A DNA stretch of 64,000 bases. It comes from Synechococcales cyanobacterium VAR_4_metabat_354 (GTDB lineage: Bacteria > Cyanobacteriota > Cyanobacteriia > Cyanobacteriales > Chamaesiphonaceae). The notes below the pieces were generated by a model. The model was not told the DNA's origin. It searched no databases and saw only the letters and a program-made list of their open reading frames with translations. Position 1 is the first letter of the stretch. The number at the start of each line of letters is the position of its first letter. Made by a program: the position numbers and the translations under genes. Of this stretch, positions 13,248-16,066 are shown in pieces. The stretch covers positions 192,001 to 256,000 of the forward strand of contig JANOQI010000062.1 of NCBI GenBank assembly GCA_031414775.1. The letters are read 5' to 3'.

Positions 13248-13973
13248 ATGATTTATCCTTTACCACCAAAAGTAAGTAAGTTATTGCCTGATCTGCTAAA
13301 TAAAGGAATGATTCAGCTTGATTTAGATGGCGAAATACCAATTTTTCGAGCATCTACAATTATGCAAAAAAGAGTGGCTATTTTACAAGAATCCAGCGAT
13401 TCCAATAAATTACTAGAACAAGAAGAATTGCTTTGTCATGAAGAGATGCAGGCTTATCTTTCTTTTGTAGAACAATCTTTGCATAAAATATCTGAAAGAG
13501 AGCAAAATCATTTAATTGAGCAGTATAAAATTTGTATCGAAATGGCAGATAGAGTCACGGAGAGAAGAACCAAGATAAGTAGTTTTTATCTTTCTGTTTT
13601 GACAGGCCTATTAGTATTTTCATCCCTTCCTTACTTCAAAGATAGTATTGTTATCAATCCTAGTAGGCAAATAACGCTAATGACTAGTTTCACTGGTGCA
13701 TTTATCTGTATCTTGTGGTGGATAAATATAGCATCTTATAAAAATTTAAATTCTATCAAATTCACAGTTATTCGTGAAATGGAGAAAAACTTGCCATATC
13801 CCTGCTTTGAAAGAGAATGGGATACAAAATCTTCTAATGTCGAGAAGTACAAAAAGCTAAGAAAAGCAGAATCGTTCGTCCCCATAGTAATAGCAATTCC
13901 TTTTCCTTATCTCATCATTTCACTTACTAGTATTTATGATTTATTTTCATTGTTCTTAAATAGATCCAGATAA
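13248..13973 (+). CDS. Membrane protein: N-terminal small helical domain + 3-TM domain resembling the RipA-like/octameric membrane protein family
   Basis: EQYKICIEMADRVTERRTKISSFYL...WWINIASYKNLNSIKFTVIREMEKNLP..FEREW; three hydrophobic segments; family name is from recall, not a search. Confidence 0.6.
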   Translation: MIYPLPPKVSKLLPDLLNKGMIQLDLDGEIPIFRASTIMQKRVAILQESSDSNKLLEQEELLCHEEMQAYLSFVEQSLHKISEREQNHLIEQYKICIEMADRVTERRTKISSFYLSVLTGLLVFSSLPYFKDSIVINPSRQITLMTSFTGAFICILWWINIASYKNLNSIKFTVIREMEKNLPYPCFEREWDTKSSNVEKYKKLRKAESFVPIVIAIPFPYLIISLTSIYDLFSLFLNRSR

Positions 13974-14002
13974 CTTAAAACACCATATTACGAGGTTGGA
14001 TT

Positions 14003-16066
14003 ATGCATACAAATGAAACTAGAAGAATTTTTATATCTTGGTCTGGTAAATGGGGTAGAGAAATCGCTGATTTTCTCAGCGAAAGAATGTTTGCAATTAA
14101 TGGTTACGAAGCATGGGTTTCCTTTAGAGATATTCAAAGAGGAGCAGAATGGTATTCTGCAACTATGGAAAAACTAAGTGAATCTGATGTGGGAATTTTT
14201 TGCTTTACACCTGGAGTGTTAACTAGTCCTTGGTTCAATTTTGAGGCTGGATACATGGCAGGCAAAGGATATATAGAAAGCAGAGAATCAAGACAGGAAA
14301 ATAACGAAAACCAAAGACAGTCTCATAGACTTTATGTTATTCAATTTGGAGACGAAAATATATATACCCCTCTAGATCGATATCAATCTACAACGGCGAA
14401 TCAAATAAATGATTGGGTAGATTTAGTTTCACAAATCACAGATGATCCAAATTTTAGTAGAACGTGGGTAAATGATAGGTATCCTGAATTAGAGAGACTA
14501 CTAAGAAAGAATGAAAAACCACCTTTGAAATATTTTAATGATTTGAATAAAACATTAGTTGATATATGCAAAACTATTGATATACTCAACAATAGAAATC
14601 AAGTTGCAATGGAAAACATATGTTTCCATAAAATTATTTTAGAATCTTATCAAGATATCAAAAATAGAACGAAGAAAATAAGTAATAGCTACTCAATTCC
14701 ATCTTATTATTATGCACCTTCCTTATTTTCTTTGCAAGATGATGTTAATATACAGCCAATAGTTAAAGCTATCGCTTTAGTTAATATGGAAGAACAATTT
14801 TGGTCACAGTTAGCAGGTAGAGAAATACTTCGTACTTCCAAACCTGAAAATATTCGCATATTTGTTTTTAAAGATGATAAAGATTTTAATAATTTTTATG
14901 AGACTTTAAGTGTACATTCTAGAAAATATCAAGTTTATGCAATCAGTAGTAAAAATTTATTAGATATCGTTGGTGCAGATTATGCAACTGATTTTTCAAT
15001 TATACAATCTTCAATCAATGGAGATCGTATTCTTGCTCTTTATGAGGATGCAAATAATCTGCTCGACAAAGGGATTTGTTTCACATGTGATCAAGATCAT
15101 ATAAATGAATATGAAGACAGATTCCAACATATTTTAAATTTTAAATATCTTGTCAATATCTCTATAATTATAGAAACGAATACTATTGAGGATCTGAGTA
15201 AGACAATCTTCCAATCGACAAATACACTTTTGAAAAAACCGATAGAAATGTCTGCATATATTGATATAACAGATTATGATAGGCATGAGGAAAATCATGC
15301 TTACTATCAAGATATGATGCAACATATGATTTATATCTGCTTAGATCACTCCCAAAAGTTGAATAATAATTCAATATCTATTTTAGAGATGGGAGCTGGC
15401 ACGGGGATCTTCAGTCTTCGGCTAATTGAAAACATAAATAGTCTAGTTAAGCTTGATATTATTGAAATCGACTGGCATTGTTTTCATCTTCTAAAATCCA
15501 AAATAAAAGAATGTTTTAACGCAAATACAATTATTTCTGATGTTGCCGACAAACTTGAAATAAATATTGAACACCGTGAACGCAATACTCGTATCAATGT
15601 TTATCACAAAGATAGTAGATGGTATGACCCAAATGGAAAATTTGATTACATTGTTTCGTCTTTCGCCGATCATCATATTCACGATTTTGACAAGCAAAAA
15701 TATTTCGATAATGTCAAAAGAAATTTAAATTCTAATGGATTATTTATTATTGGAGATGAATTTTTAAGGGTATATGATCAAAATAAAACAGATGACAAAA
15801 GAAATGCTTTAGAAGACTATCATAATCATATTATAAATATTGCTAAAAGAGAAGGACACCATGTTCTTGTCTCTTTAGAACAAGCAGCTTTAGAATCAGG
15901 AATTAAAGGAATAGGTGATTTCAAAGTTTCTTGTGAAGAATATGAGAGATATTTAGATAATGCTGGTTTTAGATTTGATGAGCCTCAAAAAATAGGTCCG
16001 TTAGAACTAGATAATGTTGGAGGAATTTACGTTTACAAATGTAAATTCAGTAAGAACGAAGATTGA
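14003..16066 (+). CDS. TIR domain - unknown middle domain - class I SAM-dependent methyltransferase fusion
   Basis: TIR_2-like IFISWSG...DIQRGAEW...SPWFNFEAG (catalytic-position Glu present); C-terminal ILEMGAGTG, IEID, FDYIVSSFADHHI, LNSNGLFIIGD. Confidence 0.8.
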   Translation: MHTNETRRIFISWSGKWGREIADFLSERMFAINGYEAWVSFRDIQRGAEWYSATMEKLSESDVGIFCFTPGVLTSPWFNFEAGYMAGKGYIESRESRQENNENQRQSHRLYVIQFGDENIYTPLDRYQSTTANQINDWVDLVSQITDDPNFSRTWVNDRYPELERLLRKNEKPPLKYFNDLNKTLVDICKTIDILNNRNQVAMENICFHKIILESYQDIKNRTKKISNSYSIPSYYYAPSLFSLQDDVNIQPIVKAIALVNMEEQFWSQLAGREILRTSKPENIRIFVFKDDKDFNNFYETLSVHSRKYQVYAISSKNLLDIVGADYATDFSIIQSSINGDRILALYEDANNLLDKGICFTCDQDHINEYEDRFQHILNFKYLVNISIIIETNTIEDLSKTIFQSTNTLLKKPIEMSAYIDITDYDRHEENHAYYQDMMQHMIYICLDHSQKLNNNSISILEMGAGTGIFSLRLIENINSLVKLDIIEIDWHCFHLLKSKIKECFNANTIISDVADKLEINIEHRERNTRINVYHKDSRWYDPNGKFDYIVSSFADHHIHDFDKQKYFDNVKRNLNSNGLFIIGDEFLRVYDQNKTDDKRNALEDYHNHIINIAKREGHHVLVSLEQAALESGIKGIGDFKVSCEEYERYLDNAGFRFDEPQKIGPLELDNVGGIYVYKCKFSKNED

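Follow-up and report, generated by a model that had tools for sequence, protein, structure and literature searches.

TIR signalling is common to bacterial, plant and animal immunity. To our knowledge, every new type of Thoeris system so far has brought a new signal molecule or effector principle. In type VII Thoeris, as described in a December 2025 survey of TIR systems (Yirmiya et al. 2025, bioRxiv preprint 10.64898/2025.12.03.692087), a TIR protein (ThsB) is combined with a SLATT protein (ThsH) in which positively charged pockets are described; the pair is validated as anti-phage and its signal is canonical cADPR. The survey lists 29 putative types and sets standalone TIR proteins aside as probable NAD+-depleting effectors. 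The terms ‘Methyltransferase’, ‘RipA’ and ‘PF24838’ are absent from its main text, and a TIR + 8xMP pairing may already be catalogued, untested, among its 29 putative types.

A two-gene island in the genome of Synechococcales cyanobacterium VAR_4_metabat_354 resembles type VII Thoeris in that a TIR gene adjoins a gene for a small multi-pass membrane protein. The stretch analysed, called the window below, comprises 64,000 nucleotides of contig JANOQI010000062.1 (positions 192,001 to 256,000). The type VII effector is a SLATT protein, whereas the effector candidate of the island belongs to the Pfam family 8xMP; likewise, the type VII TIR is a small ThsB, whereas that of the island is part of a 687-aa protein with PLD-like and methyltransferase domains. 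The same effector family occurs in unnamed ThsB + 8xMP cassettes from metagenomes and plasmids, with membrane proteins 35–47% identical to that of the island (gene 1). Their TIR is usually a ThsB-like protein of 130–180 aa rather than a TIR/PLD-like/methyltransferase fusion (gene 2), and gene 1 has an additional 89-aa N-terminal extension. Searches of both genes matched no complete named system in PADLOC 2.0.0 and reached no NCBIfam model at its score cut-off. The original prediction did not recognise the architecture as a named system, but its kind is familiar: it follows the logic of Thoeris, in which a TIR is combined with a signal-activated membrane effector, as validated for TIR + SLATT in the survey. 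As read from its sequence, the island has a TIR with the catalytic Glu and an adjacent gene that is found recurrently beside TIR genes, and the pair is probably a variant of the Thoeris anti-phage alarm systems. Our best explanation of the whole, to which we give a probability of roughly 0.5, is that the island is a Thoeris-like TIR conflict module that was acquired horizontally and is most likely anti-phage.

The island lies between genes of an ABC operon, with exact edges: the ATPase gene stops at 13116 and the first permease gene starts at 16158. Coordinates here and below are those of the window.

11122..13116, + strand: gene for a fused double ABC ATPase, preceding the island (Pfam ABC_tran, E 1.3e-60, two stretches)
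13117..16157, no strand: low-GC island of 3,041 bp, occupying the whole space from the ABC ATPase gene to the first ABC-2 permease gene
16158..18381, + strand: two ABC-2 permease genes, following the island (ABC2_membrane_3, E 9e-39 and 7e-42)

As predicted, the island is AT-rich, with a GC content of 0.307 (30.7%) against 0.517 in the left flank, 0.475 in the right flank and 0.451 in the whole window, and it holds two co-oriented open reading frames spaced 29 bp apart (13248-13973, +, 241 aa; 14003-16066, +, 687 aa). Contigs of a second sample from the same study (run X4) span both island junctions with 0 differences. In relatives, the permease genes directly follow the ABC ATPase gene, and the two closest relatives, which belong to the same genus, have an empty site of 55 bp (G001, 89% identical) or 35 bp (G007, 83%). 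The low GC content and a gap of only 35–55 bp in the closest relatives indicate acquisition into a variable site, and base composition and comparison identify the island as a horizontally acquired two-gene module. Other relatives carry a PIN_3 + MazE-like toxin-antitoxin pair (G003) or a Uma2 endonuclease (G014) at the same position; the intergenic site is thus a hotspot. No flanking repeats were found around 13117..16157, an Rfam search of the island gave no match and no terminator-like site was found on its + strand.

Gene 1 encodes the membrane protein.

13248..13973, + strand: gene 1, membrane protein of 241 aa (Pfam 8xMP, PF24838)
13248..13514, + strand: soluble N-terminal extension (gene 1 residues 1-89), outside the 8xMP profile and assigned to no family
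13515..13919, + strand: 8xMP core of gene 1, residues 90-224 (Pfam 8xMP profile)

It belongs to a named family: residues 90-224 match positions 1-132 of the 136 in the Pfam 8xMP profile (E 5.4e-30, 104.4 bits, gathering cut-off 30). The core consists of an amphipathic helix, two hydrophobic helices, a conserved loop and a third hydrophobic helix. Three transmembrane segments had been predicted, and three hydrophobic segments do appear in a hydropathy plot, the only basis for this count (Kyte-Doolittle, 19-residue; peaks of 1.27 at about residues 117-126, 1.65 at about 153 and 1.97 at about 219), although the first is just moderately hydrophobic. The N-terminal extension shares its sequence only with P0061 and its length with L039, most relatives being 150–190 aa long; one relative that is 69% identical to gene 1 has the same N-terminus. 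Residues Y93, K94, R107, G150, W157, L167, N168, K171, E179 and E190 are invariant in TIR-linked 8xMP proteins (alignment A4), and R106 is kept in at least 90% of them. The basic residues K94, R107, K171 and R106 would suit binding of a phosphorylated ligand, and conserved basic cytoplasmic residues in 8xMP have a counterpart in the positively charged pockets of ThsH described in the survey. Gene 1 is present as a single copy in its own genome and has no match in PADLOC, PHROGs or PDB sequences; for the 8xMP family, no PADLOC 2.0.0 model was matched and no NCBIfam family model was matched above its cut-off. A SLATT effector such as ThsH of type VII Thoeris was considered for gene 1 and rejected. 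Pfam SLATT gives no match at E ≤ 1, the best SLATT signal (NCBIfam SLATT_4, E 0.047) reaches 13.6 bits against a cut-off of 55, SLATT_1 matches one of 21 8xMP members (E 0.011), and hhalign of alignment A4 with six SLATT_4 proteins gives a probability of 3.6%; as these alignments were small, a distant homology may have escaped them.

A printed basis for the name of the 8xMP family was not found in the literature. ESM Atlas clusters for 8xMP are automatically named ‘RipA family octameric membrane protein’, which we take to refer to the RipA of Francisella; the shared Pfam family is a likeness by automatic cluster name. In small genomes of the same phylum, 8xMP genes occur in housekeeping contexts, where they adjoin genes for PAP2 lipid phosphatases and FtsH. 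These housekeeping-type (RipA-like) members have no TIR neighbour (0/16 loci), unlike gene 1, so that 8xMP is not intrinsically a defence family.

Gene 2 combines four parts in one polypeptide (AF2 model, mean pLDDT 85.7).

14003..16066, + strand: gene 2, 687-aa fusion of TIR, helical linker, PLD-like domain and class I methyltransferase (Pfam, PADLOC, NCBIfam, AF2 model)
14015..14440, + strand: TIR domain, about residues 5-146 (TIR_2; putative catalytic Glu81 in WFNFE)
14447..14674, + strand: helical linker, about residues 149-224 (DSSP helices 149-171, 175-197 and 206-224 in the AF2 model)
14678..15172, + strand: PLD-superfamily-fold domain, about residues 226-390 (structure match; HKD motif absent)
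15245..16063, + strand: class I SAM methyltransferase domain, about residues 415-687 (Pfam Methyltransf_23/25/31/12/11; invariant His557-His558)

The whole architecture is found in 57 relatives with 31–72% identity, 54 of which cover 84–99% of the query. They are spread over many phyla and include one archaeon, in a patchy distribution (about 40 of 185,579 species genomes). The predicted N-terminal TIR with a Glu at the catalytic position is present. Pfam TIR_2 matches residues 9-86 (E 2.4e-8, 35 bits against a cut-off of 28), with further similarity to PADLOC TIR-TM (E 1.9e-15), to phrog_13899 (E 3.8e-19) and, far below the model cut-off, to the NCBIfam Thoeris type III ThcB4 (E 6.5e-6). Position 81, in the WFNFE motif, is E in 50 of the 58 family members, K in six and a gap in two, and W77 is kept in 53/58; gene 2 probably retains the catalytic Glu. 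All seven 8xMP-linked relatives and the SLATT-linked one keep it, and one subclade (6/58) has Lys or Ala in its place. The PLD-like and methyltransferase parts are conserved more strictly than the TIR, while the helical linker is poorly conserved. The subclade without the Glu suggests that the methyltransferase may be the core activity of gene 2.

The middle region, previously unassigned and without a match in Pfam, can now be assigned to the PLD superfamily by fold. Its model (pLDDT 84.0) aligns in VIA-align with TrmBL2 (5bpd, Z 12.0), SauUSI (7clg, 11.8), Nuc (1bys, 11.4) and NucT (6ehi, 11.0); every one of the 22 highest-ranking alignments is to a PLD-fold protein (Z 12.0–6.9), and Foldseek returns the same set (E 1e-4 to 1e-2). 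The fold over residues ~226-390 is shared with the C-terminal domain of TrmB/TrmBL2, Nuc/NucT, the N-domain of SauUSI, BfiI, Zucchini and FAM83 (Z 9.2–12.0 over 128–153 residues). Unlike catalytic members of the superfamily, gene 2 lacks HxK(x)4D: the motif is absent from this domain in all 58 members, and it occurs in the family just twice, in two different members, both times within the methyltransferase region. H305 is kept in 54/58 and K308 in only 26/58, while Y237, E264, F266, W267, R285, Y309, D330 and Y347 are kept in 58/58. In lacking the motif, the domain would resemble the non-catalytic TrmB/FAM83 type more than the nucleases.

The C-terminal domain has the marks of a class I methyltransferase, namely a Rossmann-type fold, a GxGxG motif (GAGTG at residue 464) and an acidic residue after strand 2. 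Five Pfam methyltransferase families match gene 2, two of them above cut-off, and Methyltransf_23/25 cover residues 453-590 (E 2.6e-9 and 1.9e-7). Foldseek gives a probability of 1.00 for many methyltransferases, with MM_2633 (3dtn), CysG/BelI (9fc*) and CmoA as top matches (E 2e-10 to 2e-8). CysG/BelI and MM_2633 are the closest solved structures and sequences, at only 16–18% identity in the Foldseek alignments; they are free-standing natural-product enzymes, whereas the domain in gene 2 is fused. According to Kuttenlochner et al. (2024, PMC11408123), CysG and BelI are metal-dependent carboxyl O-methyltransferases with a His-His-Asp metal site. Of this triad, the two His align with the invariant H557-H558 (‘SSFADHHI’ in gene 2 against ‘SALSIHHLE’ in CysG and MM_2633). 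G464/G466/G468, E488, D490, H557, H558, G584 and D585 are invariant in 58/58 members, which argues for a working enzyme and not a mere ligand sensor. No [DNS]PP[YFW] or PCQ/PCN motif occurs in gene 2, and a DNA methyltransferase of a restriction-modification system was rejected because no such DNA motif is present and neither N6_Mtase nor DNA_methylase is among the 11 Pfam matches. Pfam, Foldseek, the alignment with CysG/MM_2633 and the absence of DNA motifs thus uphold the small-molecule rather than DNA type that had been proposed, and the domain is apparently active on small molecules. The MADS component mad2 (PADLOC PDLC04134) also matches the methyltransferase region (E 3.7e-13); membership in MADS was rejected because only positions 294-397 of the 492 in the model are matched and the island holds no other MADS component.

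The co-occurrence of the two families, which the original prediction had offered as a check, is seen from both sides. Around gene-2 relatives, an 8xMP gene lies within two open reading frames in 7 of 37 loci (four cyanobacteria, one Nitrospinota, one Bacteroidota and one Acidobacteriaceae), variously upstream, downstream or divergent. In one myxococcal locus (L026, Myxococcales), a DUF4231/SLATT_1 protein, of the type VII effector family, takes the place of 8xMP. About 29/37 loci have neither an 8xMP nor a SLATT gene within two open reading frames, so the partner is optional and gene 2 is apparently able to work alone. Adjacency of 8xMP and gene 2 by chance would be negligible, since 8xMP occurs in a single copy and only 58 of the 401 genomes surveyed from the phylum have it. 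From the side of gene 1, 80 metagenomic loci of its closest 8xMP relatives were compared, and in 51 of them the gene right beside 8xMP encodes a TIR protein. Most of these neighbours are ThsB_TIR genes (130–180 aa) that overlap the 8xMP start, and others encode TIR fused to AAA, STAND, NB-ARC, WD40 or pentapeptide modules; the small TIR partners tested all match PADLOC ThsB models (9/9, E 6e-9 to 8e-17). The ThsB + 8xMP pair also occurs on two plasmids, annotated ‘TIR domain-containing protein’ and ‘hypothetical protein’, beside a type I restriction R subunit, a PIN protein, toxin-antitoxin genes and recombinases. Comparative genomics therefore bears out a TIR enzyme linked to a small multi-pass membrane protein in an acquired module. 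Proximity to defence genes, likewise offered as a check, gives a mixed picture. Neighbours of metagenomic TIR + 8xMP pairs often include defence genes by raw count (type I restriction-modification parts, DndB, GmrSD, AbiJ, PIN), whereas convincing known defence neighbours are rare beside gene-2 relatives (2/37: AbiU at L031, and at L018 a fragment of a type IIG restriction gene), where other PADLOC matches are generic ATPase, helicase or cyclase similarities and ParE/Phd, PIN_12 and DUF29 also occur.

In the mechanism that we propose, gene 2 would act as the enzyme that both senses and makes the signal. A trigger would lead its TIR to cleave NAD+ into an ADP-ribose-derived nucleotide, a diffusible signal, and the PLD-like and methyltransferase parts would be a trigger-sensing module, a product-tailoring module, or both. 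Gene 1 would be an oligomeric 8xMP membrane effector whose conserved basic cytoplasmic residues bind the TIR product; by breaching or gating the membrane, it would stop the infected cell. Several observations weigh against this explanation: the partner is optional, known defence genes are scarce beside gene-2 relatives, the PLD-like and methyltransferase parts are more strictly conserved than the TIR, one subclade has lost the TIR Glu, housekeeping-type 8xMP genes have no TIR neighbour, and neither protein matches a complete named system. We consider it likely that the island is a TIR + 8xMP conflict module, regard activation of 8xMP by a signal as evenly balanced, and hold methylation of that signal by the methyltransferase to be doubtful. 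A joint reading, which is unlikely in its entirety, has the His-His methyltransferase add a methyl group to an ADP-ribose-derived molecule or ADP-ribose-amino-acid conjugate, at a carboxylate, phosphate or hydroxyl. The methylated nucleotide would escape known phage sponges and hydrolases, 8xMP would be a non-SLATT, signal-gated effector class common to thousands of ThsB + 8xMP cassettes, and an AstE/AspA-like deacylase would make or clear the signal. The tie to TIR genes in 51/80 loci of close relatives, together with the lack of a PADLOC 2.0.0 or NCBIfam model match, makes 8xMP a candidate Thoeris effector class. In gene 2, one conserved polypeptide unites a TIR with a PLD fold that lacks HKD and with a methyltransferase that is apparently active on small molecules. 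Should this methyltransferase act on what the TIR makes, the immune messenger would be chemically modified; should it sense SAM or a phage factor, TIR activation would have a new kind of trigger module.

The loci of gene-2 relatives without an adjacent membrane partner (29/37) would also fit a self-contained abortive-infection protein, in which the PLD-like and methyltransferase-like parts of gene 2 sense a phage cue (nucleic acid, the level of SAM or SAH, or a SAM-degrading enzyme of the phage) and drive oligomerisation, and the TIR kills through NAD+ depletion. Such a protein would be akin to Avs, SPARTA or TIR-STING, where a TIR effector is joined to a sensor; 8xMP would be an optional extra or would act independently as a second effector. 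The N-terminal TIR and large C-terminal module kept in 57 relatives, from many phyla and one archaeon, agree with this explanation. The matched PLD fold does so too, as single-HKD-type PLD folds are typically dimerisation units (Nuc, BfiI, Zucchini). Standalone TIR proteins are, moreover, seen as probable NAD+-depleting effectors in the survey, 10.64898/2025.12.03.692087. We nevertheless find it rather unlikely, because the invariance of GxGxG, E488, D490 and His-His in 58/58 members argues for a working enzyme, and because both the recurrent, positionally variable linkage to 8xMP or SLATT and the close tie of the 8xMP clade to TIR genes (51/80) need a functional reason.

A conflict module could also be directed at targets other than phages, as an addiction or inter-element system (toxin-antitoxin-like or anti-plasmid) that persists because it is mobile, with 8xMP as a membrane toxin restrained or triggered by gene 2. 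This is quite unlikely: tested TIR + membrane effector pairs so far act against phages, according to the survey, the ThsB-like partners of 8xMP match Thoeris models, and many ThsB + 8xMP pairs are flanked by restriction and Abi genes, although relatives have Uma2 or a PIN toxin-antitoxin pair at the hotspot, plasmid-borne ThsB + 8xMP pairs sit among toxin-antitoxin genes and recombinases, and ParE/Phd, PIN_12 and DUF29 are neighbours of gene-2 relatives. A role outside conflict is very unlikely. Gene 2 would then be a metabolic or membrane-lipid methyltransferase with PLD-like head-group binding, acting with a RipA-like 8xMP in envelope or lipid homeostasis, and its TIR-like domain would serve nucleotide binding or regulation. 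In gene 2, conservation is indeed highest in the methyltransferase and PLD-like parts, one subclade lacks the TIR Glu, some gene-2 relatives are automatically labelled ‘phospholipid N-methyltransferase’ or ‘spermidine synthase’, and both the automatic Atlas cluster name and the PAP2 and FtsH neighbours of housekeeping-type 8xMP genes point the same way. However, the pair is absent from the closest relatives and foreign in base composition, the gene 2 family is patchy, its PLD-like domain has no HKD catalytic motif, and the 8xMP clade nearest gene 1 goes with ThsB-like TIR genes rather than with lipid genes.

A gene for an AstE/AspA-like deacylase adjoins the TIR fusion gene in three loci of gene-2 relatives (L003, L011 and L037), lying between the fusion and 8xMP genes in two of them, and directly follows 8xMP in two further loci (L132 and L133).

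Thoeris logic offers the best-supported reading of the gene pair, by analogy with described systems: a triggered TIR enzyme would produce an NAD+-derived nucleotide, which would in turn activate the partner effector. A validated precedent described in the preprint of Yirmiya et al. (2025, bioRxiv 10.64898/2025.12.03.692087) is type VII Thoeris, which pairs a TIR protein with a SLATT membrane effector and responds to canonical cADPR. The original prediction held that the architecture was unrecognised, and this stands in part. The logic is known from Thoeris types I–XI, whereas neither an 8xMP effector in place of SLATT in TIR systems nor a TIR/PLD-like/methyltransferase fusion was found in the searched literature or in the main text of the preprint. 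The same survey reports 29 putative types (10.64898/2025.12.03.692087), and the TIR and 8xMP pairing may already be among them.

The two co-oriented ORFs and their 29 bp spacing are confirmed, as is the AT-rich island that had been proposed around them. GC content is 30.7% in the island (13117–16157) compared to 51.7% in the left flank, 47.5% in the right flank and 45.1% in the window. Pfam annotation of surrounding ORFs indicates that the island is flanked by a single ABC export operon, in which it fills the ATPase–permease intergenic gap exactly:

opposite strand, TetR gene, flanking the operon
9708–11096, HlyD-like adaptor of the operon
11122–13116, fused double ATPase of the operon, 5′ of the island
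13248–13973, + strand, gene 1, 241-aa 8xMP membrane protein
14003–16066, + strand, gene 2, 687-aa TIR/PLD-like/methyltransferase fusion
16158–17258, first ABC-2 permease of the operon, 3′ of the island
17260–18381, second ABC-2 permease of the operon, 3′ of the island

The operon was sought by DNA search in 30 relatives and in the window's own genome (31 in total) and was present in several. The island is absent from both closest relatives, which belong to the same genus (89% and 83% identical); in these, 55 and 35 bp, respectively, separate the ATPase stop from the permease start. The equivalent gap contains a PIN_3 protein (toxin) with a MazE-like antitoxin in genome G003 (locus L050, 3770–4425) and a Uma2-family endonuclease in genome G014 (locus L051, 3713–4480). 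Because the two closest relatives have no insert in this gap and the other two have different genes there, it is a hotspot, inside an operon, for small cassettes of a selfish or defence type. The gene pair is real and horizontally acquired. An assembly chimera was considered and rejected as unlikely: contigs from a second sample bridge both junctions with 0 differences, although both samples belong to the same study and the support is thus only partly independent. Island ends carry no terminal repeats or target duplication, only short chance-like repeat pairs, and no Rfam family matches the island at E ≤ 0.1. Promoter and terminator scans of the island performed no better than shuffles; both terminator-like sites are on the − strand and none is on the + strand. 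Lack of a + strand terminator, repeats and an RNA family suggests that the pair may be transcribed by read-through with the ABC operon. Farther along, the final 86 bp of the second permease gene, stop codon included (18296–18381), recur 3.7 kb downstream at 22105–22190 with 77/86 identical positions. The stretch between these copies would be a second insertion, at the operon 3′ end, and contains the following by Pfam annotation:

288-aa ORF without a family
HTH_3 protein
62-aa ORF
20296–20802, IS630-like transposase, first ORF (HTH)
20811–21365, IS630-like transposase, second ORF (DDE_3)

Gene 1 is the sole 8xMP copy in its own genome. Its residues 90–224 match the Pfam 'octameric membrane protein family' (8xMP, PF24838) with E 5.4e-30 and 104 bits against a cut-off of 30. 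Hydropathy analysis gives three hydrophobic segments, of which the first is the weakest, in agreement with the three transmembrane segments predicted originally. The 89-residue N-terminal extension belongs to no family and is shared with one 69%-identical relative. Gene 1 has no match in PADLOC, PHROGs or PDB sequences and none near any NCBIfam cut-off; a search for solved structures by sequence with gene 1 and with the 8xMP profile returned nothing meaningful, and a word-indexed protein search recovered nothing beyond the window's own protein and a single relative. In the ESM Atlas its neighbours are clusters of 8xMP proteins; two carry the automatic name 'RipA family octameric membrane protein', for which no published basis was found in the literature searched. 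A four-copy structure prediction for residues 86–241, made with an alignment of 8xMP proteins, scored 0.38 against a mark of 0.42, a value that speaks neither for nor against an oligomer. Matches to SLATT families are sub-threshold, both for SLATT_4 (NCBIfam) with gene 1 (E 0.047) and for SLATT_1 with 8xMP members (E 0.011, in 1 of 21). Homology between 8xMP and SLATT was not demonstrated by profile–profile comparison using hhalign with six SLATT_4 proteins (probability 3.6%).

Linkage to TIR genes is evident when viewed from gene 1. Metagenomes were scanned using aligned 8xMP proteins (11, including 10 TIR-linked ones), which gave 414 confirmed relatives; the best 80 of these, with 33–47% identity to gene 1, were analysed over 137 ORFs. 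A TIR-domain gene is the immediate upstream or downstream ORF in 51 of these best 80 loci. At least four pairs of these loci are nearly identical duplicates, which lowers the number of independent cases somewhat, and several of the 29 loci that lack a TIR neighbour lie at contig ends. ThsB_TIR matches 42 of the 51 neighbours, most of which are 126–183 aa long, with many overlapping the 8xMP start. The other nine match TIR_2 only and are mostly longer, with AAA/STAND, NB-ARC-WD40 or pentapeptide modules. Two more large neighbours match the family TIR profile weakly (E 2e-4 and 6e-4). All nine small TIR partners tested match PADLOC ThsB models. No PADLOC model matches the 8xMP proteins scanned (gene 1 and 11 relatives), and these 12 together with the 69%-identical relative have only chance-level NCBIfam matches, far below cut-offs. 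ThsB and 8xMP-type pairs also occur on two RefSeq plasmids, where their neighbours include toxin–antitoxin genes and recombinases as well as a PIN protein and a type I restriction subunit.

Within the window's phylum, 8xMP occurs above cut-off in 58 of 401 genomes. Neighbours were surveyed at 25 loci (93 of 122 ORFs, with six near-repeat loci left out). TIR neighbours accompany three of the nine best-scoring loci, and at 16 small-genome loci the genes around 8xMP encode FtsH, PAP2 or aminotransferase proteins and none encodes a TIR. This distribution divides 8xMP into a housekeeping branch and a TIR-linked branch, and gene 1 falls in the latter. The lower-scoring branch (L064–L083; E ~1e-15 to 1e-20), from ~2 Mb genomes of the same phylum, is nearly universal in one family and has FtsH, PAP2, aminotransferase or glutaredoxin genes as neighbours, without TIR, which suggests a housekeeping role. 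Some close 8xMP relatives (L164 on plasmid NZ_AP014640.1, L084, L103 and L128) are convergent with a ~780–815-aa protein that has an AAA signal and whose N-terminus is only weakly TIR-like or nucleoside-deoxyribosyltransferase-like. This protein may represent another TIR-like partner class.

Gene 2 begins with a TIR domain (Pfam TIR_2 match over residues 9–86) that also matches PADLOC 'TIR-TM' (E 1.9e-15) and phrog_13899, a phage protein family without assigned function (E 3.8e-19). Several Pfam class I methyltransferase families match its C-terminal third. The AF2 full-length model has a mean pLDDT of 85.7. The middle region has no Pfam match; modelled separately (pLDDT 84.0), it adopts a PLD-superfamily fold, with VIA-align Z of 12.0 to TrmBL2, 11.8 to SauUSI, 11.4 to Nuc and 11.0 to NucT. 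All top 22 VIA-align rows are PLD-fold proteins and Foldseek is concordant. The best ESM Atlas match for this domain (score 0.75) has no name and is uninformative. Protein searches recovered 57 relatives of gene 2 with 31–72% identity (query coverage 84–99% in 54 and 65–73% in three) from Cyanobacteriota, Acidobacteriota, Bacteroidota, Actinomycetota, Myxococcota, Nitrospinota, Pseudomonadota, Planctomycetota, Chloroflexota and one Methanothrix genome. Among the 58 members (gene 2 and these relatives), eight residues of the PLD-like domain are kept in all. The HxK(x)4D motif is absent from this domain, with H305 in 54/58 members and K308 in only 26/58. All 58 likewise keep the methyltransferase residues that bind SAM or are putatively catalytic, and 50/58 keep the TIR Glu, with Lys in six and a gap in two.

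The methyltransferase is of a non-DNA type, as was claimed, with no DNA-methyltransferase motif in the sequence. A DNA-modification enzyme of a restriction system was rejected for lack of both motif and family match, and MADS was rejected with a match confined to part of the methyltransferase. For this domain, the closest matches are MM_2633, CysG/BelI and CmoA. In CysG, His-His aligns with the invariant H557-H558 of gene 2; in CysG/BelI this His-His is described as part of a His-His-Asp site with a catalytic divalent metal for carboxyl O-methylation (PMC11408123). Strict conservation of active-site residues favours a working enzyme, which makes methylation of the TIR product or of a co-substrate a live possibility.

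Gene 2 relatives also occur in split form. Two ORFs are present at eight loci in Nostocales and other cyanobacteria (L017, L020, L021, L022, L025, L027, L028 and L029), divided at the PLD-like/methyltransferase boundary into a TIR and PLD-like ORF of 483–524 aa, with an additional ~85-aa N-terminal extension, and a methyltransferase ORF of 246–275 aa. Either a naturally split gene or repeated frameshifting may explain this arrangement. At the position of the TIR Glu, L017 has Ala, and relatives P0028 and P0035, both with the same N-terminal extension, have Lys. In an Acidobacteriaceae MAG, a gene 2 relative adjoining 8xMP (L039, 6001–7682) contains 12 in-frame stop codons beyond about residue 160, which reflect either decay of this copy or poor assembly.

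Linkage is sparser when viewed from gene 2. Two ORFs on each side were annotated (143 in total) at 37 of 45 genome loci, leaving out fragments (L035, L038, L040) and weak partial matches (L041–L045). 8xMP lies within two ORFs in 7/37 loci (Symploca, Moorena, Cylindrospermum, Crocosphaera, a Nitrospinota, a Bacteroidota and an Acidobacteriaceae genome), variously upstream, downstream or divergent. At a further, eighth, locus it is reduced to a 25-residue remnant, and at a Myxococcales locus a DUF4231/SLATT_1 protein occupies its position. The TIR Glu is present in all eight partnered relatives, the seven with 8xMP and the one with SLATT. No 8xMP or SLATT partner occurs within two ORFs in the other 29 loci, known defence neighbours are scarce and the TIR Glu is lost in a Nostocales subclade. 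These observations argue against an obligate two-gene system; the main rival to the Thoeris reading is, therefore, a self-contained TIR NADase to which the membrane protein is an optional add-on. The TIR found with 8xMP at other loci is either a ThsB with nothing fused to it or the output module of a STAND-type sensor. Under Thoeris logic, the PLD-like and methyltransferase portion of gene 2 would, by analogy with those loci, decide when the TIR fires, which product is released, or both.

An AstE/AspA-like (succinylglutamate desuccinylase/aspartoacylase) protein of ~283 aa is encoded at five loci:

5097–5948 (L003) and 5118–5966 (L011), between the 8xMP and fusion genes
4474–5319 (L037), adjoining the fusion gene
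964–1803 (L132) and 730–1584 (L133), metagenome loci, directly 3′ of 8xMP

This gene is a possible third component, and its presence hints at further small-molecule chemistry.
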